NCBI GenBank assembly: GCA_964016885.1
Contig: OZ024741.1
Span: forward strand, 52,762,001-52,826,000
Direction of reading: 5' to 3'
DNA length: 64,000 nucleotides
DNA from: Eledone cirrhosa
Taxonomy: Eukaryota
Part shown: piece after piece, positions 5,701-64,000 of the stretch
How positions within the stretch are numbered: position 1 is the stretch's first letter
How the letters are laid out: every line of letters begins with the position of its first letter
The notes under the pieces: generated by a model
The model's database searches: none
Seen by the model: only the letters and a program-made list of their open reading frames with translations
Told to the model about the DNA's origin: nothing
Program-made: the position numbers and the translations under genes

Positions 5701-6108
5701 TGCGTGCGTCACGAAGAAACCGTTGCGCACGCATTGGTGCACTGTCCGGGCGTGGCTGATCTGTGGGGCTAGGCCGAACGACTGCTGTTGCGGGTGGCGC
5801 CGATTCGATTGACCGCCGAGTCCGTGGTAACAATCAAGCCGCCTCCCCTCTTCACAAAGGAAGCAAAGGCGGTTTTTCTGTGCGTAATAGCCATGTTGAA
5901 AGAGGTTGTTTGGTGGACACGATTGAAAGATCTGAGGTCAGGCAACTTCCTCTCTGGCCATAGTCTGGTCTACTTCTTCCGATATCACTTCGGAAGAAGG
6001 ATAAGAATGGAGAGAGAGGTGCTTGGCCACAGGCAGTTTTATGAAAGGTGGGTGATAATAGCGAGAATGGCTCGTGTAAATGGGCCTTCTCTGTATACCA
6101 TCCTGTAG
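2718..6108 (+). pseudogene. LINE ORF2 (APE endonuclease, reverse transcriptase, zinc motif), disrupted
   Basis: Motifs CLNARGL, ICET, GDWN, SYLDRF, TDHK (APE); KSPGLDG, NFRPITLLN, LDQSKAFD, KGCPLS, YADD (RT); CPRC..ETVAHALVHC. Split over ORFs 2718-3581, 3959-4564, 4561-5232, 5233-5772, 5788-6108 by stops and frameshifts, with a probable deletion near 4492. Confidence 0.92.
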
Positions 6109-6916: not shown

Positions 6917-7890
6917 GTAACCCCACCACTCTTACAGGCCCTAACGGGTCTTTCCGTATCCGCCATTCCTTCACCTTCACATCCACCCATGTTGTCTATG
7001 CCCTCCGGTGTTCCCTTTGCGGGTCTTTATATATCGGACAAACGGGACGCCGTATGGCGGACCGTTTTGCCGAACATTTGAGGGAATACGACTCGGTTTG
7101 GTTACTCCTGTCGACCGCCATTTCTGTTCTCCTGGTCATTCTTCCCTACATGTTTCAGTCCTGGGTGTCCTTTTATAGATCACAGGTCAGGCGCACCACG
7201 ACTGAACAAAGTCTGTTTCACCACCTTGGGTCCTATTCCCCTCTTGGACTCAATTCACCTCCCCAATTTCTCTAATATCCCATCCATTATCACATCCCTA
7301 GATTCCTATCGCTTTCTCTTGATCATTAGCAGCTTCTCTTACAACTAATACATGCCGACTATATATGCTTACTCCACTTTTCCCTTCACTGCTCTGTATA
7401 CACACATACACACACTTATATTAACATACTTTTGCTCATAGCTTCGTACTGACATGCACTCACACATACACTCTTTTACTCACATATACACACACATTTC
7501 TTCTTGGCTTCGTACGGACGTATAATAACACGCGCACACACACACACTCTCTCACACACACATACACACACACGCACGCACACACACACACATACTTACG
7601 CACGTGCTCAAGTATAGCTCTTTTTACAAAACGTTTTTTTTTCCATTTCAGTTTGTCACGCTCCATCATCCACTTTTCTAAAAAATAAAGCATACACAAA
7701 ACGCCAGCACCGACAGTTTCGCAAGAGATGTCAACATGAATGGACCTGTTATTTTTATCTAAAGACATTTTTTCTAATTCCATCCCGCCCGTCCCCTCAA
7801 ACTATCTTATTTCTCATTCTTTCTTCTGACGAAGGAATAGCGTCCGAAACGTTAAGACCGACTTCCTGCTATATCAAGCGTTAACCTAAT
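6917..7890 (+). mobile_element. 5'-truncated Penelope-like element (Neptune-type GIY-YIG end and pLTR)
   Basis: Translation HVVYALRCSLCGSLYIGQTGRRMADRFAEH...PLGLN (GIY-YIG); starts in (TA)n; HHR at the end of the 3' region. Confidence 0.85.
7822..7857 (+). ncRNA. Minimal type I hammerhead ribozyme
   Basis: TCTT-CTGACGA-A-GGA(atagcg)TCC-GAAAC-GTT-AAGA; stem I TCTT/AAGA. Confidence 0.75.
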
Positions 7891-8544: not shown

Positions 8545-8629
8545 ACACATACACACACACACACACACATTTATATATATATATATAAATCTGTGTGTGT
8601 GTGTATATATATATATATATAAGAAAAAT

Positions 8630-8822
8630 AATTGTTTCTACTTTAGGCACAAGGCCAGCAATTACCCAGTGCATTACTGGTACTTTATTTTATCGACCCC
8701 GACCCCGTAAGGATGAAAGGCAAAGTCAACCTCGGCGGGATTTGAACTCAGATCGTAAAGGGACGTAACTATGCTGGAAAGCATGCCTTCCGACCCTCTA
8801 CCGATACTGCCAATCCACCGCC
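8630..8822 (-). mobile_element. tRNA-derived SINE, family A
   Basis: Minus strand has a B-box GTTCAAATCC and body GTTGACTTTGCCTTTCATCCTT..GGGGTCGATAAAATAAAGTACCAG (resembles the Nin-type SINE core); other copies at 30045, 32297, 34770, 62974. Confidence 0.8.
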
Positions 8823-14410: not shown

Positions 14411-15640
14411 CACAGCGTTGTGCATAATCTAGAGTCCACCTGCATTTTAGCTGTCATATTATTAGTAACCTAAGCATACACACACAAGCGCGCAAATATC
14501 ATCACACTTGATTTTCCTTTTAAATCATTGTACATATGTCGACCAATCACATTATTTGATGTATTTTCATATATGCAGCACGCCGAGTCAGTATTTTAAT
14601 AGATATTTGAGTATTAACATGACAACCATTTCAAGCGGAAAACATGCACATATCATTCTTCTTCACGAGGAAGGCTATTCTCAGCGCCAAATGTCTGTAC
14701 GATTGGTAGTATCAAAGACTTGTGTTCAAAAACACTAGCCCGTAATACAACAATAGGCACTCTTAACCCAAACAAGCGGTATGGAAGGTCACGTAAGATA
14801 AGTGTTCAAACGGATCACATGATACGCCAACTTGCAGTGTCAAATCCAACTGCTTCCAGCCCATATATCCAAGTTCGACTTCCCCACGACACAAATATAA
14901 CACCATCTGGCAATGCTGTGTTAAGGATTTTAGCCTTCAGGCTTTTAAGCCAGCTGTCAAGCCTCAACTTTCAAATAAAAGCATCAAGGACCATCTGTTA
15001 TTCTGGAACACTTATCGTCGCTGGACTGCTGATCAACGGTGTGATGTAATGTTTAGTGATGAAACATTAATTATACAATTTGCTCATTATAATCACCATA
15101 TAAGAAGACCACCTGGACAGCGTTATAGTTCTCGTTATGTCAAACCAACAGTTAAACATCCACAATCATTAATGGTCTGGGGATCAATAAGCATAATGGG
15201 ACGAGCTGCATTGACAATAATTCCAGCAGTAAAGACTGAAAATACAAACATGTATTTGGAAATCATACGAGAAAAGGTCTCATTATGGATGGGGAGGCGT
15301 GTTAAGATATATCAACAAGATGGTGCTCCGTGCCATAATCAATTTTTTCGAGAATCTGATATTGAAGTGCTGCCACATTGGCCAGGCTCAGGTCCTGATT
15401 GAAAACTGTTGAAAGACAAAGTTACCAAGCTTTATCCCAGATCAATTACTGACTTACAACAAACAATTCTTAGTGTATTGACATAACACATTACTCCTGA
15501 ATATTGTGCTATCTTGGCGGACTCAATGCCTCGCAGAATTGCTGCAGTAATTGCTACTAAAGGCCATCAAATTACTGATTTGGAATGGACAATTTGTAGC
15601 ATCATGCTTTATTTTGTATGTTTGTAATATATACTATTTT
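14411..15640 (+). mobile_element. Tc1/mariner DNA transposon relic (transposase pseudogene about 14619-15578)
   Basis: HTH region EEGYSQRQMS, GRSRKIS, then FSDE, TVKHPQSLMVWG, QQDGAPCH, WPGSGPD, SMPRRIAAVI; TA then a TIR-like start; right TIR not found. Confidence 0.88.
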
Positions 15641-17570: not shown

Positions 17571-17620
<50 letters not shown>

Positions 17621-17887
17621 TGGATGATGTAGAAACAGGTTTATCAAGGGCCGTAGCAAAGATAGAGGCAGAAGGAGGTAGGTCAAACTAGCCACAGCTA
17701 TTGCTAGCAGCAGTCAGAACGACCAAATTTGTTCTCAACATTAGTGGAGGTAGTAGTAATAGGATATACGTTCCTTCACGCACAAGGCGCCAAGGTACGC
17801 ATATATCCACTCTCATCCCAGGAACAGTTTTGATAGCGCTAGTCTGTGATTTAAATTCAGGAATTTTATATTCTTTGAATGAAAAGA

Positions 17888-17971
17888 ACCTTCTGACGAG
17901 AATCTTTCTTTGCAACGAAGGCCGTATGGTCTCCGTTTTATTTTTGGGATTCGAAACCGATCGGTAAAGGT
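17888..17971 (+). ncRNA. Canonical type I hammerhead ribozyme
   Basis: ACCTT-CTGACGA-GAATCTT..GGGATTC-GAAA-CCGATCGG-TA-AAGGT; palindromic stem III. Confidence 0.88.
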
Positions 17972-18368
17972 AACTATAGTAGGTAGTCAATTTTTTAAAA
18001 TCTATTTTGAAACTTTTTCATTATTTGCTAAACCTTGTTTATATTTGTTCTGGCTCGTTAATTTATTAACCCGCCATTGAACCACACTGGCATCTGGTTG
18101 GACAATACATGCGTACCTTGGCGCCTTGTGCGTGAAGGAACGTATATCCTATTACTACTACCTCCACTAATGTTGAGAACAAATTTGGTCGTTCTGACTG
18201 CTGCTAGCAATAGCTGTGGCTAGTTTGACCTACCTCCTTCTGCCTCTATCTTTGCTACGGCCCTTGATAAACCTGTTTCTACATCATCCACTCTCATCCC
18301 AGGAACAGTTTTGATAGCGCTAGTCTGTGATTTAAATTCAGGAATTTTATATTCTTTGAATGAAAAGA

Positions 18369-18452
18369 AACTTCTGACGAGAATCTTTCTTTGCAACGAA
18401 GGCCGTATGGTCTCCGTTTTATTTTTGGGATTCGAAACCGATCGGTAAAGGT
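18369..18452 (+). ncRNA. Canonical type I hammerhead ribozyme, second tandem copy
   Basis: Copy of 17888-17971, 481 bp downstream, with one stem I change. Confidence 0.85.
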
Positions 18453-18630
18453 AACTATAGTAGGTAAAGTCAATTTTTTAAAATTTATTTTGAAACTTTT
18501 TCATTATTTGCTAAACCTTGTTTATATTTGTTCTGGCTCGTTAATTTATTAACCCGCCATTGAACCACACTGGCATTTGGTTGGACAATACATGCGTACC
18601 TTGGCGTCTTGTGCGTGAAGGAACGTATAT

Positions 18631-18683
<53 letters not shown>

Positions 18684-18687
<4 letters not shown>

Positions 18688-19269
18688 AAGGGTATGGATA
18701 TTTCAACAGGCACTAGGTACCTATAGAAATATGCAAGGTGTTTATAATAGTTGTGATTCGATGGTACTAATTTGAGATACCAGAACAATATAAAAAGAGC
18801 TGAGCAAGCAATTATCAAACAATTCTCTAAATAAATTAAAAAAACGATTTAAATAATCACCTGTTCTATTGCTGTTAGCGACGGTCTCACCAATCCAAAC
18901 ATTAGAAATCCAGAGAATTTCCAATGGAAAGAATTAGATCGTCAGACAGCTTATTTCCATACTATAAGGTTGCTAATCTCACAGTAAGTCAACATTTCGC
19001 TTCCTGCCTAACGCATGCGGCCAGGCCGTTGAAATGACACACACGCAAAATCAGGTCGCAAGTAAGAGCTGTTTATTATAAACTTGTTGATACTGCCACT
19101 AAAACCAACAGCACTATACAACGTTTTGTTCTCTACATAAGGAGAACAATTATAAAAGGGTATGGATATTTCAACAGGCACTAGGTACCTATAGAAATAT
19201 ACAAGGTGTTTATAATAGTTGTGGTTCGATGGTACTCATTTGAGATACCAGAACAATATAAAAAGAGCG
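18684..19269 (-). repeat. 468-bp tandem pLTR-like unit (1.25 copies) with a degenerate HHR at 18871-18950
   Basis: 18684-18800 repeats at 19152-19268; minus strand GCTGT-CTGACGA-TCTAATTC..GGATTGGT-GAGA-CCGTCGC-TA-ACAGC. Confidence 0.65.
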
Positions 19270-20145
19270 GACATTGCTGAGTTTTTGAGTATCAGGTATT
19301 TAGAGGTCATGGGTTTAGCATAGTTTGAGTGGAGAATTTGGGCTCTCTCGTCTATAGTGTTAATCCAGAGTTCCGAGTCTAATACAGGTAGTCTATTGTT
19401 AGGGTGTTTGGAAGGGTAGTCGATAGTTACAGTTATACTCTGGTGTATGGAAATAGCTATCTGCTGGATGCTTTCCATTGTGCTACGTTCTAAATCAAAC
19501 TTGTTAGTGCTCTCTTGTGGGGATGTCCTTATTACTATATTGATGTCGTCTACGTAACGAGAGTACATGATGAGATCTATGGAGCTCTCATCAAGGAGAT
19601 TTTTGAGTCTCCTTTCCCACCATACCATAAAAAGGTTGGCAACATCACCAGCTATGCTGACACCAATGGCTGCTCCCTCATTTTGAGTGTAGATCTTCTC
19701 GTTGAACTTGAATATGTGGCCCTTTAGGGTAGTTTTGATACTAACCCCTATTGCATGTGCGACCATTTTTCTTACCTGATCATTGTTTTGGGGGGTCCGT
19801 ATAGGTTTAGTCCACCCAATCCACCTTCCCATGGGAGTCTTTTTTGCCATTGAGGTTATGGTGGGGGTCTACCTCTTATGGGTCTACTGGGGCATAAACG
19901 TCTAAGGTCATGGCTGTCTAAGGTCATGACAGTGTCGTAGGTAAGTCTAAGTAGGAGGCCCAGTTCGTCTGTGTCGACGTCGCAGAACGCCACCTCACTC
20001 TCAATGATCATCTCTCTCCACACATTTTTCCACAGCAAAATCAATGTTAATGGATGGGTACAGTGAAACCATATCCATACTGCCTATTATGCAGTTGGAT
20101 AGGTTCCTGTTTTTGTTGCACTCACTGATTATGCTGAGGAGGTCC
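19270..20145 (-). pseudogene. Penelope-like reverse transcriptase fragment
   Basis: GSMDMVSLYPSI, QNEGAAIG, YSRYVDD, TIDYPSKHPNNRLPVLD, YAKPM; frameshifted. Confidence 0.85.
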
Positions 20146-21176: not shown

Positions 21177-23178
<2,002 letters not shown>

Positions 23179-23544: not shown

Positions 23545-23548
<4 letters not shown>

Positions 23549-23640
23549 AACGAATAGGACCCCGACGGCTGAGCTCAAGCCGTCGGGGTCCTACTCGTTC
23601 CTATTACCCACTCTACTACCCTAAGTATTAAGTACCCTAA
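23545..23640. repeat. Short palindromic pLTR-end fragment
   Basis: TAGGACCCCGACGGCT..AGCCGTCGGGGTCCTA; family also at 39790, 41308-41490, 51505-51590, 56040-56197. Confidence 0.65.
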
Positions 23641-25990: not shown

Positions 25991-26079
25991 TATACATGTA
26001 TGTATGTATGTATGTATGTATGTATGTATGTACATAACAAAATATAATATATATGTATATATATATATATATATATAAT

Positions 26080-26571
26080 ACAATATGTTGAAAAGGTAAC
26101 ACACTAGAGAGAGATAGTGTGCCATCAATAAAACAGGAAAACCACCAGTGTATGGAATCTATAATCAATGGAAGGCAGGGTAGACACACAATAATTAAAA
26201 ATATGAATTAAAATGTATATACGCACCTCTATAACTATATAACAGACGCGTACAAATCCAAAGAGATCTGTTTCGCCAGGAAGTTGTCGACTGAAATGGT
26301 TCATCAGCGCGTGCAAGACTATACATTCCAGACAACTTAGAGGTGCATATATACATTTTAATTTATATTTTTAATTCTTGTGTGACTCCACTGCCTTCCA
26401 TAGATTATAGATTCCATACACTGGTGGTTTACCTGTTTTATTGATGGCACACTATCTCTCTCTAGTGTGTTACCTTTTCAACATATTGTATTTTAAAGAG
26501 CTCAGGATTCCTTTTCCTTTGAGCACATTATTGACAGGGAATAACGACAGTCTATGGCTCCGTTAATTTAT

Positions 26572-32296: not shown

Positions 32297-32485
32297 TCGG
32301 TGGATTGACAGTTTCGCTAGAGGGTCAGACGCCATGCTTTGCAGCATAGTTACGTCCCTTTACGGACTGAGTTCAAATCCCGCCTAGGTTAACTTTTCCT
32401 TTCATCTTTACGGGGTCAATAAAATAAAGTACCAGTAATGCACTGGGGTAATAACTGGCCTTGTGCCAAAAGTAGAAACGATTAT
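32297..32485 (+). mobile_element. tRNA-derived SINE, family A
   Basis: Homologous to 8630-8822. Confidence 0.8.
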
Positions 32486-32867
32486 ATTACTGATAGTGTG
32501 CTATCGATTTCTGAGTGAAATAATTTTAGTTTCTTAGCTGAGTACAACTGATTATAAAGTCATTCGCATGAAGTATTTATGTTTGATGAAAATAATTTTG
32601 CTACAGCCGCTAACAATTATAACAGTCTCTACATAGTACTAACACGTGAGTGTACTGAGAACGTTGGTATTTTAGTTTGGAAATAGCAATCGATCAATAC
32701 TACACGCACACACACATATATATATGCATATATATCCGAGCTGAGGATACGCATAATGTGAAACATTTGTTCTCGTTATGAACTCTTTGTGGAACTTCTT
32801 ATAATACACACACACACACACACACACACACCCACACACACACACACACCCACACACACCCACACAC

Positions 32868-34383: not shown

Positions 34384-36742
34384 TTAGCTGTATACTTTAT
34401 GGAATGTTCTGTGGAATTTATGCAAGCAGAGAGAAAACAAGTCAGTGCGTCTATTTATTATAGAATCTAAATTAGATTTAATGGTAAATTTCTCACATAA
34501 ACAGAGATTACATGTCTTGGATAGAGAACCATTCAAGTATGGAGAAGCAGAACAAACCTTCCTCCAAGAGATGTTATAGTTAATATTTTTGTCTTTCAAG
34601 GACCATATGAGTTCTGAGAGTGCCGGGTTGGTTCTTTTAAGTTGGTATTTAAAAGACGAATGATGATTATAAAGACGAGCTTTAAAGGAGGTGGAAGTGG
34701 AGCCAAAATATGTAAAGGAATTGGTGTCAGTTATAACTTTATATTCGTAGATTAAGTCTTTTTCAAGATAATTGTTTCTACGTTAGGCACAAGGCCAGCA
34801 ATTACCCAGTGCATTACTGGTACTTTATTTTATCGACCCCGTAAGGATGAAAGGCAAAGTCAACCTCGGCGGGATTTGAACTCAGATCGTAAAGGGACGT
34901 AACTATGCTGGAAAGCATGGCGTCCGACCCTCTACCAATACTGCCAATCCACCGTTGTTGAGAGGACATTTATTTTTAACAGGGCAATTACAATTGCGAT
35001 TAGAGAAATTAACAGAGTTAACAAGTGACCTAGTGTTATCTATAGAAGGAATTGGATTGGAGAAGTTATTCACGATAGGAATAATAGTTTCTTGATTTAG
35101 AATGGGATTAAGAACATTTAACGAAGTTGCGTTTGACGTTGTATTTGGGTTTGCAGAAATTAGCCTAGAGTTAACAATGACGTCGGGAGTACTATTACTA
35201 TTATTATGATATTCAGTGTTGGAAGGAAGAGATTTAGTATTTAGTATTTTATTGTTGTGTTTAGAGATAATGTTAGAGATGTTGGAGGAGGTCGAATATG
35301 AACATTTTATAGTGTATTTGTTAAATATTTTACTATAGATATGTAAGGGAGGGAAGCACTTATTTAAGGCACTAAGGAATAATTTAGGAATATTATTATT
35401 AATAGAGATGGAGAAAGGAGCATTATACCAGATTATGTTTTTGTATCTAGGTCTTTTATTAAAGTTATTGGAATGATCATGATTAATTATTCTACTGTAA
35501 GATCTTCTAGAATTTGTTTCTTTACTATATTTGATTTTATCAGGATAACCGGTTTTAGAAAGCGCGTTATTATAGTAATTGGCGTTAGCATCAAAGATGT
35601 TTTTATTAGAAGATAGGTTGGATATTCTTTTTCCGATATTACTAACTATAGCATTTTTAATATTAGTGGGGTGGTTAGATTTAAAATTAACATAATTTAG
35701 GTTCTCATTGTTTTTATGGTAAGGGTAATATAGGCCAGTGTCAAGATTAAGAGATACATCCAAGAAATTAGCTAGTTTGATGCTGTTATCAAATTCAATT
35801 TTTAAGTTATGTTGGTTAAAGAGATTACGTGTATTGTTCTTAATAATATTAAGGTTAATTATGTTGCAATTTAAGATAGTAAAGAGTCCATCGTCACGAT
35901 AAATTCCACCGCGAAGTTGAGGAATTATCCGATTAAAAGATGTCAAAATAAAGATACCAATTAAATCTGTCAATTGGGATGAATCGGATGCTCCCATTGT
36001 GATGTCAAAGTTGTTAGAGGTATCAGCTCTGGTCCAATATTCATTGTTGAACTCTAGGATGGTTTTACGTGCGGTGAGAATGATGTGAAGTTCATCTGTG
36101 GTGATGTCCGAATATTTGTAAGCGAAAGATAGAGCATTGTTGAGAAGTGAGGGCGAAATAGAAGAATAGTAGCTGGCAATATCAAATTGAATAATTTTTT
36201 GTTTGTTTTTCTTACTCAATTTGTTGAACCAGCCAATCACTTCAGAAGTACCAAACCATAAATTTAGGTTCAAAGAAGAGCAATTAGAACGAACCTGTGG
36301 GATAATTCTATCCAAGATGGCTTTGCTAACAACCCCAGATCTGATTTAGAGGGGGCGATTAGTCTAACAGGTAGTTCAGTACGAAAGTTGTTTTTGTGAT
36401 CCTTGAGATTTATCCTCGGAGTTCTTGGGGGGAATGGTTCGGTCTTTTTCCGATGCCAAGTTTTGACATAATCTCAGAAGCTTCAAAGTTTATGGATTCT
36501 AAATTATCATGGTTGGTTTTGCGATATTTTTTCCTAAGTTCCTTTAGGATAAGGTTGTTATAGTTATCCTTAGAAATACCATATAAATTATTTGTTTTGT
36601 CAGAGTGGATTAAAACACTTTTTGAGGAATTTAGGTTTGAAATCGTGTTCTTGAGATTTACAAGGTGCTCTTGTCCTCTGTAAGGGTTTCTCTTGAATTT
36701 AAGATTTTTTATAGTGTTAGTTAACTCCTCCTCGAATTGCAC
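34384..36742 (-). pseudogene. Penelope-like RT and GIY-YIG ORF, disrupted
   Basis: ORFs 36410-36742, 34903-36315 and 34384-34599 join once frameshifts and the SINE are removed. Confidence 0.88.
34770..34953 (-). mobile_element. tRNA-derived SINE family A inserted in the Penelope ORF
   Basis: Near-identical to 8630-8822; splits CPLNN from YLEKDLIY; short AACAA duplication. Confidence 0.85.
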
Positions 36743-36862
36743 TAGATTTTTGTTGGAAGGAGAATTTCTTCTAGAATTAAATAAATGATCAAGAAAGTTA
36801 TGTTCCTTGGTATAGAAGTTCCCTTTTAGGCGCTTTATTGTACTACAATAAAACTCACCTCC

Positions 36863-36908
<46 letters not shown>

Positions 36909-36942
36909 GGCGCTTTATTGTACTACAATAAAACTCACCTCC

Positions 36943-38046: not shown

Positions 38047-39510
38047 ATACTTGGGGAGGGTCATATTTGTGTAATAATATTGCCAGAATTAATAACAGAA
38101 CACACTCACTGTTTGGTTGGTTTTCGCTTCTGTGTCTTTTATATCGGTTAATTTAATTTATTCGCTCCTCAATGTTACCATTGACTGAACAACGGTAAAA
38201 AATACAGATACAATATAGACACAAACACATATATATATATAGTCTAACAAAGTTCTTTCGTTAGGAGAAATTCTATGATTGGAATGTGGTTTTAGGAAGT
38301 GTGTGTGTATATATATATATATATGTAGTAATAATAATAAATTTGAAGACTAAAATCCAAAGAGGGCTCGATAAGGATAAATATATATCAAATATATAAG
38401 AACCGTAGAGCAAATATTTATTAAAATAACAGATTAAAGTTTAAGCAAAGAATCGCTTCTTTCACCCTTAATGGGATCTTCTGAAACTAGCGAAGTCAAT
38501 CTGTGAACGCAGAAGTCAATATTCAAAAAACGTTGCAACCGGAGGAAGACAGGAAGACGATACTTTGGTTGGTGGAAATGTGTATACGTGAGTTTTGTGT
38601 CTGTGTGAGTATGTGGGTTCGTACGTATGTAGGGTGTGTGTATATGTGTACTTTGTGTTTTGGTTAACGTTGTATCCGAATATATGTGTATTTACATGTA
38701 GGTATGTGTGTGCGCTTGTTATATACGTATTTATTTATTTATATACGTTTATTTAATTATATGTATACACGCACACACACATACACACACACACACACAC
38801 ACATATATATATGTATATATATATATTATATATATTTTTATGTGTATTTGGTGTATACATTCGTATGCGTGCGGGTACAGGCGTTGCGTCGGTTCTGTAT
38901 GTGCGTGCGGGTTTTATTTGTTTTTTTGTGTGTGTACGTGCGTATATTTGTATACTTATGGCGAGTGTTTTCGCGTATGCTTGTGTATGTACGTATATGG
39001 ATGCGTGTATGTATTTATTTAATTTCAATTACCTCTGTATTTTATTTACTTTACTCTTAACTCTGAATCATTCGGTTTCCTAGTTAGAATTTTAGTCTAC
39101 GACTTCCGTTATACCATTTACGTGGTTTTGTCTTTGCGTGCAATTGTTCTTCCCGCTCCACATATGACGTATTATCTTCGTTTTTTCCGTCCATTGCCAG
39201 AGAACGTCTCTATGAGCCACCTAAGAGAATATTAGTCTACGACTTCTTTTATACCATAAACGTGGTTTTGTCTTTGCGTGTAATTGTTTTTCACCGCTCC
39301 AAATAATGACGTATTATATTCGTTTATTCCCGTTCTTTGCCAGGGAACGTTTCCACGAACCAAAGTATCGTCTTCCTGTCTTCCTCCGGTTGCAAGGTTT
39401 TTTGAAACATTTACTTCTGCGTTCATAGATTGACTTTGTTAGTTTCAGAAGATCCCGTTAAGGGTGAAAGCAGCGATTCTTTGCTTAAACTTTAATCTGT
39501 TATTTTAATA

Positions 39511-39571
<61 letters not shown>

Positions 39572-41309: not shown

Positions 41310-41498
41310 GGAACCAGTAAGACCCCGACAGCTGAGCTCAAGCCGTTTCGACGGCTAATTCAGTCCAGAATTAGCCGTCGAAACGGCTTGAGCTCAGCTG
41401 TCGGGGTCTTACTGGTTCCTATTACCCACTCTACTACCTCAAGTATTGAGTACTTTGGTGCGTTATGGTCCACCTGGTTCCTTACCACATTTCCTTCG

Positions 41499-42335
<837 letters not shown>

Positions 42336-42603: not shown

Positions 42604-42926
42604 CATATATATATACATATACAAACATATACATATATATATATACAAACACACATACATACATATACATACACATACATACACACACGTACACAAACAT
42701 GTAACATACACACACACACACACATATATATATATACACACAGAGGGGCACAATTCAAGTACGTTATACAAGTGGAAAAAGCAGATAGGTAAGAGCAGGT
42801 GTGTGTATTTATATGTGTATATATGTGTATATATATTTGTATACGTATATATATATATATATGTATGCGTATATATATATGTATATGTGTTTAGATGTAT
42901 ATATATGTGTATATGTATATATATAC

Positions 42927-44980
42927 TTCGTGCGACGCACGAAGCTACAGGCACATTTCGGCCGAACGCCACCGGCTCCGGACGCCCCAGACCCGTTTCT
43001 CGCCCTGGGCCTACGACCATCTTCTTGGACGCCGGCCCCAGGGCAATTTAGCACCCTGGACGCGTTCGTCGATGCCAGCCGTAGCGCCTTAAATCGTTTC
43101 GACTTCCGCCACCGTTCCAAACGTAATAATATCTCACGGGGCGAACTCCTCGCTCTCCGCTCCCTCCGTAGCCGAGATGACATCGTCATCAAACCGGCGG
43201 ACAAGGGAGGCGCCGTGGTGGTGTGGCGCTCGGACCTCTACACGGCCGAAGCCCTCAGGCAGCTCCGTAACCCCCTCTTCTACCGCCCTCTACCCTCCGA
43301 TCCCACACCCCTCTACCAACAACAAGTTTCCTCCACCATCCAACACCTTGTCTCCTCCTCCCTCCTCCCCCCACCTCATCGTCCGCACCCCCGCACCCCC
43401 ACCATCTACTTCCTCCCCAAACTCCACGAACCCGACAACACCGGCCGCCCCATCGTCTCCGCTTGCAACTGCCCCACTGAACTCATCTCCGCCTTTCTCG
43501 ACTCCATCCTCGCCCCCCTTGTCACCACCCTCCCCGCCCACATCTCCGACACCAACAACGCCCTGCGCCTTTTCGACTCCTTCACCTACCCACCCGGCCC
43601 ACAACCCTTCCTCTTCACCCTACACATCAAGTCCCTCTATACCGTCATCCCCCACGCCGACGGCCTACGCGCCCTCAAACACTACCTCGACCTTCGCCCC
43701 TCCCCCATTCCCTCCACCCCCACCCACCTTCGCCTAGCCGAGTTGGTCCTCACCCTCAATTGTTTCTCCTTCTCGGGTGAGTTTTACCAACAGGTCACGG
43801 GGGTAGCCATGGGTACAAGAATGGGCCCGAACTATGTCAACCTTTTTGTTGGCCGTGTTGAGGCCCAAATCTTTGCCCAGTACACCGGCCCCACGCCCGA
43901 ACTGTACGGTCGTTACATCGACGACTGTATCGGAGCCACGACCCTCACCCGAGAACAGCTCGACTCCTTTCTCTCCTTCTTCTGCTCCTTCCACCCCTCC
44001 CTCCACTTCACCACCTCTATCTCCACCACCCACGTCCACTTCTTAGACATCTCCGTCGCCTTCGACCCCTCCCACCACTCCCTCGTCACCTCCGCCTTCT
44101 TCAAACCCACCGACTCCCACTCTTACCTCGACTTCACCTCTTCCCACCCCACACACACTAAACACTCTATTCCCTATTCCCAACTCCTCAGGATACGCCG
44201 CCTCTGTAGCCGAGATGCTGACTTCGAGTCCCAGGCCCTTTCCCTAGTCAGCCATTTCCTCCGCAGAGGTTACCCCCCCTCTCGTCCACACCGCTCTCAC
44301 CCGCGCCCGTGCTGTCCACCGCTCCACCACCCTCTCCCCACGCCACCGCACACCCATCCACCGTCTCCCCTTCCCCATAACCTACCACCCCTCCACCTTA
44401 CCACTCCACCGCACCATCCGCCGCCTCTTCCGACGCCTCCAGTCCGACCCCTCCACCTCCCACATCTTCCCAACCCCACCACTCCCCTCCTTCAAACGCG
44501 CACGAAATCTCTGCACCCTCCTCGTCCACAGCTCCCTACCCCCCAACCCACGCTCTCCCCCCCGGTTACTTTCCCTGTTCTAGGCCTCGCTGCAACACCT
44601 GTCCCCACATCACCAACACCACCACCTTCCAGGGTCCCAACGGCCACTCTCTCTCTGTCCGGCATGCCTTCCGCTGCACCTCCTCCAACCTAGTCTACGG
44701 ACTTCGCTGCACGGAGTGCAGCGCGACTTACGTCGGACAGACGGGACGTCGCCTGGCGGACCGATTCACTGAGCACCTCCGGGATATTCATCTCAGTGGT
44801 AGTTCCCCCATCGCCCGCCACTTTGGTGCCCCTGGACATTCCGCACGCCATCTCACAGTCTGTGGCCTACTCCAATGCCACGGAACACCCGGCAATCTCC
44901 TCAGAGTTGAACAAAGAACCATCTTCATCTTACAGACCCACACTCCCCCCGGCCTGAACTCCCCACCATTATTCCTTTAG
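42927..44980 (+). pseudogene. Neptune-type RT and GIY-YIG ORF with a few frameshifts
   Basis: IKPADKGGAVV, YFLPKLH, GRPIVS, KSLYT, GVAMGTRMGP, RYIDD, FLDI, KPTDSHSYL, SIPYSQ; shifted frame gives CSRPRCNTC..NLVYGLRCTECSATYVGQTGRRLADRFTEH..PGLN, stop at 44980. Confidence 0.92.
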
Positions 44981-46535: not shown

Positions 46536-47920
46536 AAGATGAATATAAAATGAAAGTGCTTTTTTTTAAAAAAGGAATTTATTAGGTATTGACATATGTT
46601 TCTGTAACAGACGGAATACCTATGTATCGCTGCTTGCGTAATCATATAATGTTAGCATGTATTCGATAGCAAATGTATAATCAGTTGTCACTTCTTCAGA
46701 GATATTGGATAAATTGGAAAAAAATCATAAAAATTGAAGTATTTATATTAGTTGTAATAAAGGAAGAAGATAAGGGATAGTATATGACAGATGGCAATTC
46801 AATTTACTGGTAAACAAGTATATAAAGGGTTTCTAATGAGAATACAATGAGTATATGTTTATTTTATCTAAATCAGAATTTTTGGGAGTGCCTATTTTAA
46901 TCTATACTTGACCAATTGAACAATGGACAGGGCTGGTCGTTTGGTGTAGTAGTATTAATTATAAAGTGTCAATTAAGGAAGAGGGAGATTTTTCACTGCT
47001 ACTGAATAACAACAATGCTGGTAGCCTGCTGGTATATGCATTGGGAATTGAATTAAGAAATCTCATTTTATCTATAGCAGTTTATATTAAATGGTAAAGA
47101 ATAGAAGAGTTGATAGAATTAAGACTAATAGAGAATGTTAATATGTATTTTGACAATCAAACGGAGATGGAGACAGGCGTTCAATCCTGGTAGTGTTTGT
47201 AATATGAAAATGTAGATTTTAAGCGATGGTTACAGTATAACGATCGCTCTATTCTGTTATTTAATAAAATATTTTTCGATTTCATAATACAAAATAATTA
47301 TATATTACACAATTTACAAAATTCCTGTCCGTGGGAATATGGAGGGGCAGCTGCTATTATATACCATTTTTAGGTTACGCAGCTGCCAAGCCTTGTCTGC
47401 GAGTGTTGTTACATAACGCTGGTTTTCATGTTTTATCGAGTAACGATGTCTATAAAGGCGAGATTTGAAGGATGTGGCTGTAGACCCCAGATAGTACCAC
47501 TTCTGGCTATCCGATTCGATAGCACATTTGTATATGATGTTGCGTTCAAGACACTGATTGTTCAACGGACACATTCCTGGTTGGACACAGTTACAGTTAT
47601 AATTTTGCGTTGTTGTATTGGCATGGATGTGTTGATGAGGTTGCTTAGGTAAGGCGGGATGTTGTTTGTTGTTTCGTGATGTTATAGCTGATGTTTTACG
47701 TGTATTGTTATGTGTTGGAAGGCGTTTATACAACCGTTTTGCGTTAAGCTTTTTTATGTTGTTCAATATTAGGGGCGGTTGAATATGAAAGTCGAATATT
47801 CAAGCACTTTTATTTTATATTCATCTTTTCTACAGTTTCTCCGGAATATAATTTATACTCGTTGAGCAAACCTACACGTACGCTGTTCATCTCTAACGTA
47901 AAGATATATTATCACTACAT
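46530..47920 (-). mobile_element. Penelope-like fragment (GIY-YIG N-part) with pLTR and inverted end
   Basis: ORF 47314-47766: CNC..CPLNNQCLERNIIYKC..YYLGSTATSFKSR; 46531-46561 inverted at about 47802-47832; HHR-like fold with long stem II at about 46586-46705 (CTGAAGA-AGTGACA..TGTTACA-GAAA-CATATG-TC). Confidence 0.75.
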
Positions 47921-47973
47921 TATTGATATATGTATATGTGTTTAGATGTATATATACGTGTATGTGTATATAT

Positions 47974-48056
<83 letters not shown>

Positions 48057-48287
48057 TTAGAAACCCACAGATACATGCGGACACACACATATACATGAAT
48101 GCATCCGCACCCAACCGTGAGTTAAGGGTGCCAACGTCACCGATGTTGCTCAATGAATGACTGGGACAGACCAATCCGGTTGAACTAGACTGAACTAGTA
48201 TCAGAGTTAAAAATACATTATGAAGAGAGAAGAAACATTTAGATATAATTAGTAATAAAATGTATCATACCTAAACTGCTCCTAGAT

Positions 48288-48377
48288 TCCTCGACTACGT
48301 AGTTTCGTGGCATAAACAAAAACAATACATCATAAAGATATAGAGTCCTTGCGAGGTCTGCCGACTTATCAAGAGGA
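48288..48377 (-). ncRNA. Type I hammerhead with U3-A8 core (inverted copy)
   Basis: Reverse complement of 48518-48607. Confidence 0.8.
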
Positions 48378-48517
48378 TACCTCATTTTACTAGTCTCAAG
48401 AACGCGTCTACACGACGTGAGAAAGAATCCCAAAAGGCGTGACTATCTCCCCCTCCGCCTTTTGGGATTCTTTCTCGCGTCGTGTAGATGCGTTCTTAAG
48501 ACTAGTAAAATGAGGTA

Positions 48518-48607
48518 TCCTCTTGATAAGTCGGCAGACCTCGCAAGGACTCTATATCTTTATGATGTATTGTTTTTGTTTATGCCACGAAACTACGTAG
48601 TCGAGGA
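48518..48607 (+). ncRNA. Type I hammerhead with U3-A8 core
   Basis: TCCTC-TTGATAA-GTcGGCA..TGCCAC-GAAA-CTACGTAG-TC-GAGGA; predicted cleavage after C48602. Confidence 0.82.
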
Positions 48608-49110
48608 ATCTAGGAGCAGTTTAGGTATGATACATTTTATTACTAATTATATCTAAATGTTTCTTCTCTCTTCATAATGTATTTTTAACTCTGATACTGG
48701 TTCAGTCTAGTTCAACCGGATTGGTCTGTCCCAGTCATTCATTGAGCAACATCGGTGAAGTTGGCACCCTTAACTCACGGTTGGGTGCGGATGCATTCAT
48801 GTATATGTGTGTGTCCGCATGTATCTGTGTGTTTCTAAATATATTGTTAATAACTCCCTCTGGTCGAGCAACCTTTGAAGTGTGGGGACTGCTGAAAAGC
48901 TTCCATTACTCATACTTCTTGTCTCCTTCACCACCTCTTCTACGGCTTCGATATAAATACCCCCTCCGCCTCCGTGGTATTTTCTTCGGGGTTATAAGAG
49001 GCTTAGCTCTGTTTCTCGACCGTTATATCGCGTGACTATCTCCCCCTCCGCCTTTTGGGATTCTTTCTCACGTCGTGTAGACGCGTTCTTGAGACTAGTA
49101 AAATGAGGTA

Positions 49111-49200
49111 TCCTCTTGATAAGTCGGCAGACCTCGCAAGGACTCTATATCTTTATGATGTATTGTTTTTGTTTATGCCACGAAACTACGTAGTCGAGGA
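49111..49200 (+). ncRNA. Type I hammerhead with U3-A8 core (second tandem copy)
   Basis: Same motif 593 bp downstream. Confidence 0.82.
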
Positions 49201-49331
49201 ATCTAGGAGCAGTTTAGGTATGATACATTTTATTACTAATTATATCTAAATTTTTCTTCTCTCTTCATAATGTATATATATATATATGTATATGTGTTTA
49301 GAAGTATATATATGTGTATATGTATATATAT

Positions 49332-49366
<35 letters not shown>

Positions 49367-49842
49367 GTATATATATATAGTAAGGTGCATTATTGGTTGT
49401 GTCATACGGTTCAATAAATTTTTGTTACCAATATTAAGTTCTCCACGCTTTTGTATATCTCCAATTCCATTTATGGAGATGATGTAAAACGGAGTATTTG
49501 TATCAAAATAAAGATCCGAAGGCATGGTATAAATATGTGTATATATATTTTTTCTTTGACCTCGCGTCGGTGTGTGTGAGTGTGTCTGTACCCACTCACA
49601 TTAACTGTGACCGACTGTAATTCTACAGATTTGATGTCTAGTGTCTTTTACAGCTATCGGGAGATAGAGACATGATAGTTTTATGACCCTAATTGAAGAC
49701 GGTAGCAGTCGCCGTGTTTTGACTGCTTGATCTTCATATGAGGGACTAAACTATGAGTGAACATCGTTAATTTTCTCCCTCGTATCAAGGATTTGAAGAC
49801 AATTCATTTTCATCTGACGAGATCAGTGATAATCGATCATGG

Positions 49843-50669: not shown

Positions 50670-51006
50670 AAATCAGGAAAGAAGATTGACATGGTTTGCT
50701 ATACAAAAAAGGTTTTTAATCTAATTGCTGACAATAGTTTCTCTGAACTAGTAGGTCTAGAGATCGCTATTCGCTTGTTTTCACGTCACTCGATCGCCAA
50801 TACAAAATTATAACCAGTCAGTTCTTCGGAGCTTTCTCGCATGCTCCGAAGACCTGACTGGTTATAATTTTGTATTGGCGATCGAGTAACTTGAAAACAA
50901 GCGAATAGCGATCTCTAGACCTACCAGTTCAGAGAAACTATTGTCAGCAATGAGATTAAAAAGCTTTTTTGTATAGCAAGCCATGTCAATCTTCTTTCCT
51001 GATTTA
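50670..51006. repeat. Fold-back palindrome, about 160-bp arms
   Basis: 50670-50832 is the imperfect reverse complement of 50843-51006; starts at (TA)n. Confidence 0.85.
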
Positions 51007-53881: not shown

Positions 53882-54542
53882 TGAAAAAGTGAGTCCTTCA
53901 TCAGTGACCCTCCAACCGTCCTAGGCATTTCATCGCTTTAAGGGCCATATACCTCAGGTTGGTGCGAACAACGGCTAAAAAAAGTCGTTGGGACACGTAA
54001 ATAAAGAGAACGTTAGGGTGAACAAACAAAATGGTTTAAGCAACAGAAAGTGAGAAGAAAGAGACAAGTCCCAGATTTCTATGAATATAAACTCGATAAA
54101 ATCGTGAACTAGAGAATAAAGACCATCAGACCTGTCTCTCTCTCTCTCGTCTGTGTCTTCACAGAACTTATGTTTACCGAATTCGCAGACCAGACCCCTT
54201 CTTCTTCCCCCCGTTAGACCTGTGCGAAATTCCTTCCTTGCTCACATTTCAACCAGGTCTGATGGTCTTTATTCTCTAGTTCACGATTTTATCGAGTTTA
54301 TATTCATAGAAATCTGGGACTTGTCTCTTTCTTCTCACTTTCTGTTGCTTAAACCATTTTGTTTGTTCACCCTAACGTTCTCTTTATTTACGTGTCCCAA
54401 CGACTTTTTTTAGCCGTTGTTCGCACCAACCTGAGGTATATGGCCCTTAAAGCGATGAAATGCCTAGGAGGGTTGGAAGGTCACTGATGAAGGACTCACT
54501 TTTTCATATGTAACCCATTTGCAACGCCGCAGCTCCATTATT

Positions 54543-55695: not shown

Positions 55696-56193
55696 TATAT
55701 TCATGTACAGATATTTTTGCATAACAAAATATAAACAAACGTATCTATTTCACGAGGCTCGACAGCAGCAAAAACAACAACAAAAAAGAGAGGGGACGCA
55801 ATTACATGCTTTTGAAAAATCTTAATGGAAAATTATTTGCCTATTCACCCAAGGCGACTTCTGCTTCGTAGAATCGAGACGTATTTGAGGACCGCGCGAT
55901 TTCAGAGTCAGGTTTGATCACCACATCGATCGTGCCTCGAGCTGGTCGCCCGAGAAACAATTGTAATATCTCCAATGAATTCCTTTCGTCGCAACACTGA
56001 TTCTCTTTTTTCTGCGATATATATATATATATATATAGCAAAGGAATTGTGGTAAGGAACCACATGGACCATAACGCACGAGAGTACTCAATACTTAGTG
56101 TAGTAGAGTGAGAAATAGGAAAAAGTATGACCCTGACGGCAGAGCTCAAGCCGTCGAAACGGCTTGAGCTCTGCCGTCGGGGTCATACTTTTT

Positions 56194-56253
<60 letters not shown>

Positions 56254-59537: not shown

Positions 59538-59969
59538 ATATATATATTGTATGTCTACGCCATTTTTTATTCAGTCTGTCTATATATTTAGACTAAATAT
59601 ATAGAGAGACTGAATAAAAAATGGCGTAGACATACAACACAACAGGAGGAAAAAATATAACACCACTGACGATGTTGCAGATGTGCAACGAAAGATTTAT
59701 GTAAATTATGTAAACTATATATATGTGTTTGTGTCTATATTGTATCTGTATTATTTTTGACCGTCGGTCAGTCAATGGTAACATTGAGGACCGAGTAAGT
59801 TAGATCGCAGATATAAAAGACAGCGAGAAGCGAAAACCAACCAAACAGTGAGTGTGTTCTGTTATTAATTCTGGCAATATTACACAAATATGACCCTCCC
59901 CAAGTATAACAATATTTGTTTCGGCACACAATTTCATATAAAAAACCTCTCTAAACTAATTCATCGCCG

Positions 59970-60406: not shown

Positions 60407-60803
60407 TCTGAATTTGTTTAGCAAGATTCTTTATCTGAAATCGTGTGTTGAAATATGTATATGAACATATATATATATTCATATACATGGTTAAGAGAGT
60501 GGGACTGGCTTTGTGCAGTGCCTTTGCTCACTATAAAAGTTTCATATATATATATATATATATATATATTTAGAAACACACAGATACATGCGGACACACA
60601 CATATATACATGAATGCATCCGCACCCAACTGCGAGTTAAGGGTGCCAACTTCACCGATGTTGCTCAATGAATGACTGGGACAGACCAATTCAGTTTGAA
60701 CCAGACTGAACCAGTATCAGAGTTAAAAATACATTATGAAGAGAGAAGAAACATTTAGATATAATTAGTAATAAAATGTATCATACCTAAACTGTTCCTA
60801 AAT

Positions 60804-60891
60804 TCCTCGACTACGTAGTTTCGTGGCATAAACAAAAACAATACATCAAAGATATAGAGTCCTTGCGAGGTCTGCCGACTTATCAAGAGGA
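60804..60891 (-). ncRNA. Type I hammerhead with U3-A8 core
   Basis: Same fold as 48518-48607 with a 2-nt shorter loop II. Confidence 0.82.
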
Positions 60892-61394
60892 TACCTCATT
60901 TTACTAGTCTCGAGAACGCGTCTACACGACGTGAGAAAGAATCCCAAAAGGCGGAGGGGGAGACAGTCACGCGATATAACGGTCGAGAAACAGAGCTAAG
61001 CCTCTTATAACCACGAAGAAAATACCACAGAGGCGGAGGGGGTATTCATATCGAGGCCGTAGAAGAGGTAGTGAAGAAGGCGAGAAGTATGAGTAATGGA
61101 AGCTTTCCAGTTGTCCCCACACTTCAAAGATTGCTCGACCAGAGGGAGTTATTAATATATTTAGAAACACACAGATACATGCGGACACACACATATATAC
61201 ATGAATGCATCCGCACCCAACTGCGAGTTAAGGGTGCCAACTTCACCGATGTTGCTCAATGAATGACTGGGACAGACCAATTCAGTTTGAACCAGACTGA
61301 ACCAGTATCAGAGTTAAAAATACATTATGAAGAGAGAAGAAACATTTAGATATAATTAGTAATAAAATGTATCATACCTAAACTGTTCCTAAAT

Positions 61395-61482
61395 TCCTCG
61401 ACTACGTAGTTTCGTGGCATAAACAAAAACAATACATCAAAGATATAGAGTCCTTGCGAGGTCTGCCGACTTATCAAGAGGA
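61395..61482 (-). ncRNA. Type I hammerhead with U3-A8 core (second tandem copy)
   Basis: Same motif 591 bp from the first. Confidence 0.82.
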
Positions 61483-62392
61483 TACCTCATTTTACTAGTC
61501 TCGAGAACGCGTCTACACGACGTGAGAAAGAATCCCAAAAGGCGGAGGGGGAGACAGTCACGCGATATAACGGTCGAGAAACAGAGCTAAGCCTCTTATA
61601 ACCACGAAGAAAATACCACAGAGGCGGAGGGGGTATTCATATCGAGGCCGTAGAAGAGGTAGTGAAGAAGGCGAGAAGTATGAGTAATGGAAGCTTTCCA
61701 GTTGTCCCCACACTTCAAAGATTGCTCGACCAGAGGGAGTTATTAATATATTTAGAAACACACAGATACATGCGGACACACACATATATACATGAATGCA
61801 TCCGCACCCAACTGGTCTTTATGTGTACATATATTAACATTGTCTTTCATCTTTCTGTGCATTCATAACAATATTAAAAAGTTTAACTTTCTTTTCGCTC
61901 GTTCACCTTTTTTTTCTCGAAAGAAGTCGTTTGCGACAAAAACTTTAATTGTCCAAATCACACCCCATGACACAACAGTGCGCCTGTGTTCTACCAAGAA
62001 TTGAGGACCCATAGAAGATAGTAGTTAATATGTTTGATGCAGGATGCCTGAATGGTTTAGAATCTTGCTTCATGATTATGAAGTCCCGGGATCGATCCTA
62101 CTCTATGTCATCGCAGGAGTGTCATTTACCATTGAAATTGCTTAGATAGAAACTGTTTGGAAACCTGTCGGATGGACTGCATCGGTAATTCGAAGGCTAC
62201 CTATTTTGATTACATGTACAACTCATTTCTTTCTCAGCTATGTGTACTGGTGCAACGTGAAATAAATTGTCTTGCTCAAGGACGTAACTTCCCGGAGGAA
62301 ATCAAAATAACGATAACAAGAATGAAACAGGTCTAGTCAGTTTTATACAAGTCATTTCGATATGAAACAAATTTCTACCTTCTCTAGTAATG

Positions 62393-62490: not shown

Positions 62491-62973
62491 TATATATATG
62501 AGTGTGTGTGTCTGTGAGTGCATACTTTACTGACTCTTTCCACCTACTCGTTTATTTGCTCTCTAAATTCTTACCTCACTCCATTCCTTCCATTAAATGA
62601 AGAATTGTTTTATTGATTCTTTTATTCGTGCATTTCTATGTAAAACCTTCTAAAATCTCCCAGTATAGTGTTGTGAGTGCTTATATGTATGCAGTATTCA
62701 TACACATAATACCTACACATTATCTCTGGTTATCAACCCATATAATCCACTTTACCCATTTTTAAACCCTTATATTTTACTTGATCTTATTTGATCCTAT
62801 TTACTAATTTATTTAACTCATTTGCTCATTTACTTCTAACCCACTTTTTATTGTTAATTATTCACTTAAAAATACTCCTTCAACCTATAAGCACCGTCTA
62901 TAAATAGCCTTACCCCAAAACCCCCACATCCTTCTACCCCTTATTCCTACCAGCATTATGTCCCTTTCCTTAT

Positions 62974-63046
62974 GCGGTCGATAAAATAAAGTACCAGTAA
63001 TACACTGGGATAATTGCTGGCCTTGTGCCAAAAGTAGAAACAATTA
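62974..63046 (+). mobile_element. SINE family A 3' fragment
   Basis: GGTCGATAAAATAAAGTACCAGTAATACACTGGG..GCCTTGTGCCAAAAGTAGAAACAAT. Confidence 0.7.
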
Positions 63047-64000
63047 TGTCCCTTCTCCTCCTAATCCACTCTTACCCACTAACGACTCATACCCTCACCC
63101 ACGCTACTTCTTTTCCTGACCCCTTGCCTGTCCAAATACATTTACCATTGTCTGGCTACCCTCTTTCTCCGCCAGACCAGTTTACTACCATGAACAATTC
63201 AACCAAAGCACTATGAAGTCCAGTGATCTATATTTTCACACTCTAAAAATATAACTACACCATTGACAAGGCTTGCTGAACACACAAGTCGAAAGCGCTT
63301 GGAACCGCGGTTGGGATTTTACATATCTCTCTCTATATATGTTTGTAACCACACAGCCATGCGCCTTCACGAGCTTGTAAAGAGTGTTAATTAAGTACCC
63401 TTGATGGTTTTCTATTGAATGGTTTTAGTGTCCGCTTTCGTATGTATTCTACATTTGCGGAGTTATTCCATTTTCCGTTAACAAACACAAGAACAACAAC
63501 AAGAACGACGGTGACCCATGTGTATTATCATCTGAATGGTGATATACTATGAGACATAAAAGATAAGTACTGTTATCATAATGGTAATTATAAAATATTA
63601 AGGTGAAAATTATATTATATTAATTACGAAACTTAAGAGATAAGAAATGCTAATTCGGTAATATGAATAATTTTTAATATCATATTAAATATAATATTAA
63701 AAATATTGAACGCATTAACATTGAGGTCGATAGGGAAAGTGTGGAAAAAATTGTTGGTACTAAATTTTGAAATGCATGTGTGACTAGTTTAGCGAAGAGA
63801 TATAATCAATATATATATTAATAATAAATATTCAATATTATACAGAAACTACGCAATATGAGAGCTACAGCTTGATAAAGTTTGTTTCCGCCATACTAGA
63901 AATGAGTGTGGGTCAATGGTTGTTTAACGGATCATAAGAGTCAAGAATTATGGATGATATCTAGTATAGGCGTTTATATTAGGGTTGGCTTTGATTATCT

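Follow-up and report, generated by a model that had tools for sequence, protein, structure and literature searches.

How does a short, non-coding repeat that carries a hammerhead motif come to lie as an inverted copy followed by a tandem between tracts of (TA)n? We addressed this question at an insertion near 48 kb of the window, the whole 64-kb stretch of DNA analysed here, whose unit recurs in a sister insertion near 60.5 kb. The explanation that accounts best for both, and which we regard as very probable, is that the 591–593-nt unit is a non-autonomous Penelope-like mini-element, that is, a non-LTR retrozyme mobilised by Penelope-like elements (PLEs).

Anatomy of the 48-kb insertion

The window resembles animal DNA in being rich in (TA)n and holding many retroelement remnants. 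The 48-kb insertion consists of an inverted arm and a main tandem arm set between (TA)n tracts, as laid out below; unit positions (+n) are counted from the predicted hammerhead cut, with +1 at 48603.

47926..48049, left flank: degenerate TA/TG microsatellite, then pure (TA)n; insertion target
48050..48439, minus strand, inverted 5′-truncated arm: 390 nt, 0.66 unit, unit +447 to +243
48437..48455, head-to-head inversion junction: 3-nt microhomology (48437–39) and 16-nt spacer
48437..49275, plus strand, main arm: 839 nt, or 1.41 head-to-tail units with a period of 593 nt
48603..49195, plus strand, one cut-to-cut monomer: 593 nt, non-coding
49276..49379, right flank: (TA)n and degenerate microsatellite

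The initial annotation had noted an inverted partial copy ahead of the tandem and a location inside (TA)n, and we recovered both, the former as 390 nt at 48050–48439 with a 16-nt spacer and the latter as tracts on both sides of the insertion. The extent it gave, 48050..49272, starts correctly and stops short of the last unit-matching base, 49275, the three final letters (49273–75, TAT) being common to unit and flank. The hammerhead sense of the inverted arm (48050–48439) is the minus strand, and the arm pairs with 48456–48845 with mismatches at 6/390 positions. Its 3′ end faces outward into (TA)n at a recurrent end site, E2; the main arm is 5′-truncated at +428 and has its 3′ end at a second recurrent site, E1 (+80), and the 3′ ends of both arms point outward. 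Where units of the main arm overlap (246 nt), 4 positions differ. Within the insertion 7 differences are found, none of them shared by two arms or copies (3, 3 and 1), and the differences from the 60.5-kb variant are common to all of its pieces, from which we infer that the three pieces probably derive from one template variant and aged later.

The first tandem copy alone carries three substitutions (48477, 48489 and 48498) that fall within 22 nt near the hairpin apex, and the letters at these positions are nearly missing from the family in public sequencing run X1.

No unambiguous target-site duplication was found at the flanks of the 48-kb insertion; in PLEs such duplications are optional. 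The start of the left flank resembles 49283–49340 over a word of about 60 nt with 5 mismatches, and a third copy lies at 42881. A degenerate TA/TG word of about 50 nt thus occurs three times, at 47927–47990 and 49283–49340, in direct orientation on both sides of the insertion, and at 42873–42925, just ahead of a Neptune-type remnant. This repeated word could be a long target duplication or else an independent micro-repeat.

A sister insertion of the same unit

60564..61814, minus strand, sister insertion: 2.12 units of 591 nt, with two hammerheads

The periods of the two insertions are 593 nt (48 kb) and 591 nt (60.5 kb), and their monomers are 95.1% identical, with 24 substitutions and 4 indels, in agreement with the earlier description of a 593-bp variant with scattered differences from the 60.5-kb copy. 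Units of the 60.5-kb array show 0 mismatches in 660 nt, and the family is young, to judge from this one array without internal mismatch. The unit has a GC content of 0.42 and no LTR pair. The 60.5-kb copy enters (TA)n with its 3′ end at site E2 and joins non-TA sequence with its 5′ end; it therefore has (TA)n at the 3′ end only, it is without an inverted arm, and terminal inverted repeats were not found in it. The sole perfect (AT)3 hexamer of the unit lies next to a 3-nt indel at the +242 end, and hexamer and indel together may mark the junction at which a PLE end first turned tandem.

Hammerhead motifs and predicted RNA fold

A motif descriptor located five type I hammerheads, with cores at 48523 (plus), 49116 (plus), 48372 (minus), 60886 (minus) and 61477 (minus), and each insertion holds two consecutive complete motifs. 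Those of the 48-kb insertion are as follows.

48284..48382, minus strand, hammerhead of the inverted arm: core 48372–48366, predicted cut after 48293
48513..48611, plus strand, hammerhead copy 1: stem I 48513–22/48603–11, core 48523–29, predicted cut after 48602
49106..49204, plus strand, hammerhead copy 2: core 49116–22, predicted cut after 49195

Each motif is built of stem I, a U3–A8 core replacing C3–G8, a bulged stem II lengthened by a hairpin of about 45 nt, GAAA (48589–92 in copy 1), a palindromic stem III (a perfect 10-nt palindrome, 48592–48601, in copy 1) and GUC. With a descriptor composed after the motif had been seen, 1/5000 mononucleotide shuffles of the unit gave any match and in 0/5000 was stem III palindromic as well, so that chance does not account for the hammerhead match.

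The motif had been described as unchanged in all five copies. This holds for the core, stem II, stem III and proximal stem I, and fails at the tip of the stem-II extension, where the 60.5-kb hammerheads lack 2 nt, and in distal stem I, where they have G-U in place of G-C. The invariance is weak on its own, because the five copies derive from only two insertions. Among 40 substitutions listed from public contigs, 0 fall on core nucleotides, and 3 of the 4 listed inside the motif keep pairing, the fourth breaking a terminal pair. Between the 48-kb and 60.5-kb variants, pairs are kept at 10/13 paired sites, against about 60% expected, a difference that is not significant.

Folding predictions distinguish the two strands. 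The circular MFE of the hammerhead-strand monomer gave z scores of −5.4 and −5.7, and that of the antisense monomer −0.2 and −1.1 (25 shuffles each). The stem III palindrome does not fold alone and forms a duplex with a second copy at a predicted −12.9 kcal/mol; on this model the 10-nt palindromic stem should need a second copy to fold. Double self-cleavage, as predicted, would release the cut-to-cut monomer 48603..49195. The isolated hammerhead domain shows the motif in its centroid fold and does no better than shuffles (z −0.85), and Rfam gave 0 matches over the whole window at the gathering threshold and, for the unit at E up to 10, no more than 4 matches to hairpins, put down to chance and none of them a hammerhead. 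Both the z score and the want of a matching Rfam model count against the mini-element reading; Rfam misses the U3–A8 hammerhead variant of this unit.

Searches of metagenome and viral contigs for the hammerhead pattern, and of metagenome and prokaryotic genome contigs for a 23-mer of the unit, each returned 0, and no tRNA genes were found. The marks of plant LTR retrozymes (a type III hammerhead in LTRs, a 4-bp duplication) are absent: the topology is type I and the units are in tandem.

The unit in public sequencing runs

Words of the unit occur in 20 runs, under 17 organism labels from 16 studies, X5–X20 accounting for 16 further labels. No RNA run is listed among the 20, a point that tells neither way, and 0 reads came from a raw Hi-C run of another organism label (X22), a null that carries no weight. 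Three of these 20 runs (X1, X4 and X5) were mapped on one unit plus 30 nt. From run X1 (organism A) 1638 contigs map, with a summed depth of 1–6 × 10^5, against 9–18 for the individual long pieces listed; the family is very abundant in its host, depth here not being a copy number. The head-to-tail joint (49029>48437) is present in 3/3 runs with coverage, X1, X4 and X5, and in X4 its depth is as great as that of the main contig. In X5 (organism B) the whole unit forms one unbranched, self-closing contig of 621 nt (591+30) at a depth of 7.8, and this contig has 20/20 of its listed substitutions in common with the 60.5-kb copy. No strand-change joint occurs among the 21 pieces listed of 1696, a list whose 2% filter lies above the level of a single-locus junction. 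Short matches of other contigs to 48796–48832 were rejected as low-complexity TG sequence.

The appearance of the unit under foreign organism labels is likelier to reflect close relatives, diet or cross-contamination. We consider it very doubtful that the true template of a Penelope RT is here a ribozyme circular RNA that also passes from host to host.

Copies end at two recurrent 3′ sites

The 5′ ends in the window vary (+428, +447 and about +176), and the 3′ ends fall at +80, +243 and +242, the main arms spanning +428 to +80 at 48 kb and about +176 to +242 at 60.5 kb. The inverted arm ends outwardly at 48050, within 1 nt of the unit position of the 60.5-kb end, 60564, a coincidence expected about 0.5% of the time by chance if ends were uniform. 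Among the 14 loose-end rows listed of 102 from the public contigs, exits into (AT)n make up 3 rows, at two sites, with 16 contigs: 11 contigs of X1 leave at E1 (48682, which is 49275 minus 593), and 4 contigs of X1 and 1 of X4 leave at E2 (48844). Both 3′ ends of the 48-kb insertion thus recur in other copies, with a spacing of 162 nt between the two sites. Since the unit has 10 TA-like clusters and the listed (AT)n exits use two sites only, the dominant 3′ ends appear to be fixed among these 14 rows, although minor or scattered 3′ ends could lie among the other 88 of the 102.

The initial annotation had described copies that start and end at different points of the unit, as in a circular permutation, and had drawn from this a circular template. 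Different start and end points are indeed found in the main arms; as a permutation the description is not borne out, the 3′ ends recurring at two sites, as fixed internal initiation predicts. When ends of the public contigs were mapped on the monomer, the check that had been suggested for scatter, the listed 3′ ends lay at +80 and +242 instead. Fixed termini attached to an autonomous element had been named as evidence against that reading, and of these we see the termini and no attachment. With fixed 3′ ends the original argument for a circle falls; the circle itself is not refuted, as neither fixed nor permuted ends can decide between a circular and a multimeric template.

How the inversion formed

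In unit coordinates the two 5′ ends of the 48-kb arms are 19 nt apart, a proximity expected by chance in about 7% of cases. The inversion is most simply read as fold-back self-priming of the cDNA. Priming of both target strands is a possible alternative, because the site where the inverted arm stops is used as a primary 3′ end as well. In rotifer PLEs, palindromic junctions have been read as self-priming, and in PLEs the inverted 5′ pLTR is described as overlapping the direct one (PMC3846280).

The layout is not confined to one locus. Five other (TA)n-bounded head-to-head hairpins in the window have spacers of 1–32 nt, and an inverted arm is present in 11/58 of the window's segments of at least 150 nt between (TA)n tracts. 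A second hammerhead family shows it too.

17616..18635, plus strand, second hammerhead family: 191-nt inverted arm and 1.7 units of 481 nt, in (TA)n

Its hammerhead has a C3–G8 core, a palindromic stem III and a long stem-II extension, and its circular fold scores z −2.7. By blastn it has no similarity to the first family, and Rfam at E up to 10 gave it 0 matches. Two hammerhead families of unrelated sequence, both in this 64-kb stretch, thus share the Penelope-type layout of inverted arm and tandem in (TA)n. In the second, the 3′ end of the inverted arm abuts the 5′ end of the main arm with an overlap of about 10 nt (about 4% by chance), a geometry that looks like twin priming and would arise most easily on a linear RNA of more than 2 units. 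Twin-priming geometry is reportedly known from work on L1 by Ostertag and Kazazian.

Further head-to-head insertions in (TA)n, of several short families, lie at 50671–51004, 41310–41419, 56118–56195, 59547–59637, 23548–23600, 53883–54505, 26078–26491 and 38415–39514. Some short families have both a short and a longer 3′ end, the family at 41368–41499 ending at 55 and about 130. A 480-nt inverted pair (21177–21656 and 22569–23045, 99% identical) has a weak hammerhead-descriptor match in each arm, and a single, putative match lies at 11507 (minus).

Coding content and neighbouring Penelope-like remnants

The unit is non-coding and has neither an RT nor a GIY-YIG ORF. Its longest frame (134 aa, stop to stop, 48631–49035) was rejected as a gene, since Pfam gave it no match and the 60.5-kb variant does not keep it open. 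PLE remnants do occur in the window, in the following places.

47314..47799, minus strand, Hydra-type PLE, GIY-YIG fragment: CxCx5C linker; inserted separately from the unit
34384–36922, minus strand, Hydra-type PLE remnant: broken; DKT, CxCx5C, CxxC..E
42789–44980, plus strand, Neptune-type PLE remnant: RT and GIY-YIG; DKG, Cx4CxxC
6919–7272, plus strand, EN fragment related to the Neptune-type remnant
19236–19868, minus strand, PLE-like RT fragment

By tblastn, the 7 PLE ORF remnants of the window gave no significant match to the units; no sequence shared between unit and PLE remnants was found within the 64-kb window, and a relaxed scan found no hammerheads beside these remnants. The nearest fragment, at 47314–47799, was considered as the unit's own ORF and rejected, as (TA)n lies between them and they share no sequence. 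Since the period closes on itself and no coding link was found, the unit is, on the sequence evidence, a self-contained mini-element. By type, Hydra- and Neptune-type PLEs are candidates for its mobiliser, and (TA)n insertion and hammerheads have been reported for Hydra elements (PMC8557442).

The Hydra-type remnant at 34384–36922 is interrupted near 34765–34954 by a short repeat that also occurs at 8622–8820, 32298–32491 and 62967–63047. A broken LINE lies at 769–5812 (plus), with AP endonuclease and RT by Pfam, and 14618–15402 (plus) looks by eye like a Tc1-like transposase remnant, without a Pfam match.

Probable mobilisation in trans and the nature of the template

Mobilisation in trans by a Penelope-like RT/GIY-YIG, as first proposed for this locus, agrees with our results: the layout is that described for PLEs, the unit is without a PLE ORF, and PLE remnants of a type that targets (TA)n lie in the window. 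The case for it is that partial tandems, an inverted 5′-truncated copy, a palindrome-like junction and a (TA)n target all match PLEs, whose insertions are described as typically holding a partial tandem and an inverted 5′-truncated copy with a near-palindromic junction (PMC8557442); in vitro, an anole PLE initiates internally at two fixed sites and extends both target strands (PMC11167929). Against it stand the want, within the window, of a PLE partner, of sequence shared with PLE remnants and of hammerheads beside them, and a distance between 3′ sites (162 nt) that exceeds the 30–40-nt PLE "tail".

The insertions could have arisen as follows. RNA would be transcribed through tandem copies, and a PLE RT/GIY-YIG supplied in trans, with Hydra- or Neptune-type elements as candidates, would nick (TA)n. 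Reverse transcription would begin inside the RNA, at either of two AU-rich sites (+80 or +242), pass one or two hammerhead sites and halt at a variable point, leaving a 5′ truncation. In the 48-kb copy, the 3′ end of the cDNA most likely folded back on the 3-nt microhomology with a 16-nt loop and copied 390 nt of itself, and the remaining (TA)n end would then have been linked to the folded-back arm at the one hexamer of the unit that is a perfect (AT)3; alternatively, both target strands may have been primed at this step.

All three arms read through a hammerhead cut site, as they could not have done on a linear monomer running from cut to cut. Among templates that remain, a linear multimer, transcribed from a genomic tandem array and left uncleaved, with the hammerhead slow, protein-assisted or used elsewhere, has in our judgment close to an even chance. 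The twin-priming geometry of the second family would be natural on a linear RNA of at least 2.1 units, although this is one example and from a different family; moreover, repeated 5′ truncation would shorten arrays unless length were regenerated. A homogeneous source array and a circle are indistinguishable in the present data.

We give a rather less than even chance to a monomeric circular RNA, formed by double hammerhead cleavage and ligation and copied in rolling-circle fashion by a PLE RT. The read-through of cut sites by every arm suits it, as do the mismatch rates within insertions (0/660 and 4/246, versus about 5% between insertions), the structure predicted for the sense-strand monomer as a circle and the reported circularity of related retrozymes in coral, mussel and axolotl (PMC7229834); a circle would also supply the length-restoring step presumably needed against 5′ truncation. 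It is weakened by the want of scatter among the listed 3′ ends, by an in vitro PLE reaction described as taking unprocessed RNA with no need of hammerhead cleavage (PMC11167929) and by a preprint's account of 8/9 Xenopus retrozyme dimers left uncleaved in vitro (bioRxiv 2026.07.22.740005), and the closed 621-nt contig of X5 (591+30) would be produced equally by tandem DNA. Template jumping seems unlikely. As the family is young and abundant, a full genome would allow a test between circle and linear multimer.

Other readings of the insertions

That the copies are 5′-truncated pseudo-LTR ends of an autonomous PLE is, in our view, quite improbable. PLE pLTRs are reported to bear type I hammerheads, including U3–A8 ones, often as opposite-strand pairs 100–700 bp apart (PMC4209133), and E1 at +80 comes near the spacing in the anole Poseidon element (cut ORF +26, initiation +111–118; PMC11167929), and the unit may descend from such a PLE end. 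As an account of the present copies, however, this reading is opposed by the 591–593-nt period in both insertions, by a main contig path that closes on itself in X1, X4 and X5, by listed loose ends none of which leads upstream into a recurrent long sequence, and by the fact that no conserved ORF begins in the unit.

An origin of the inversion as a fold-back artefact of amplification, library preparation or assembly is highly improbable. Short-spacer fold-backs are a typical amplification chimera, and no strand-change joint appears among the listed contig pieces; a single-locus junction, however, lies under the 2% listing filter, the arms differ at 6/390 positions with 3 private to each, the inverted arm meets (TA)n at an end that recurs in the family, and the same layout occurs in other families of the window, also with diverged arms. 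Hardly credible, finally, is a DNA-level element (a non-autonomous Helitron/Helentron-like or foldback element) or a recombination-spread satellite with the hammerhead as passenger: Helitron/Helentron-like and foldback elements do occur as tandem and inverted copies in AT-rich targets, but the polarity of fixed 3′ and variable 5′ ends, the strand-specific RNA structure with a conserved ribozyme core and the 60.5-kb copy without terminal inverted repeats all speak against it.

Comparison with known systems

Animal tandem repeats with type I hammerheads are known as non-LTR retrozymes, with PLEs proposed as their mobilisers (PMC7229834), and a recent preprint argues that retrozymes are non-autonomous PLE derivatives of 51–972 bp (bioRxiv 10.64898/2026.07.22.740005; Li, Clavereau and Pollet 2026). 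Like the metazoan non-LTR retrozymes described there, the unit is a non-coding tandem with one type I hammerhead per unit and a GC content below 50% (PMC7229834), a structured monomer, two consecutive hammerheads and co-occurring PLEs. At 591–593 nt it exceeds the 170–400 nt given by Cervera and de la Pena (2020, PMC7229834) and lies within the 51–972 bp of the preprint. Unlike those retrozymes, it has a U3–A8 core and a stem-II extension of about 45 nt, and it is known here from sequence alone.

Like EN+ PLEs, the unit shows 5′ truncation, partial tandems, an inverted copy and two 3′ ends (Craig et al. 2021, PMC8557442), and AT-rich or (TA)n targets (Arkhipova et al. 2013, PMC3846280; Frangieh et al. 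2024, PMC11167929). Unlike them, it is without an RT/GIY-YIG ORF, and its 3′ ends are 162 nt apart, as against 30–40 nt in the PLEs described. Both of its ends are microhomologous to (TA)n, whereas anole Poseidon is reported to initiate where homology to the target is absent (PMC11167929).

Its ribozyme resembles PLE hammerheads as described by Cervera and de la Pena (2014, PMC4209133) in being type I, in its bulged stem II and in a short palindromic stem III that implies a dimer; the U3–A8 covariant is known there from the Cercyon PLEs of Schistosoma. It differs from those hammerheads in a long loop 2 hairpin, a 10-nt palindrome and a place in a self-contained tandem rather than at the flank of an ORF. 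The Chlamys elements, such as MRC1, are likewise described as non-autonomous PLE derivatives with multicopy head-to-tail arrangement (PMC8557442); they differ from the unit in being algal, in belonging to a clade without canonical hammerheads and in having 3′ sequence in common with an autonomous family.

The circular-template model was put forward already in 2014 (PMC4209133), and the retrozyme papers argue for PLE mobilisation from shared hammerheads, co-occurrence and pLTR phylogeny (PMC7229834; bioRxiv 10.64898/2026.07.22.740005). Inverted arms, microsatellite targets and fixed 3′ ends do not figure for retrozymes in the main texts of PMC7229834 or the preprint, and the open-access literature gave no prior description of the 591–593-nt family or of inverted arms in retrozymes. 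The unit is a further case of a known kind of animal genomic parasite, the non-LTR retrozyme. What appears to be new, from the letters at these loci, is evidence for PLE mobilisation in the insertion scars themselves, together with two fixed 3′ ends 162 nt apart: scars of Penelope type, with an inverted 5′ arm, two fixed 3′ ends and a (TA)n target, make a direct, if modest, addition to the existing arguments.
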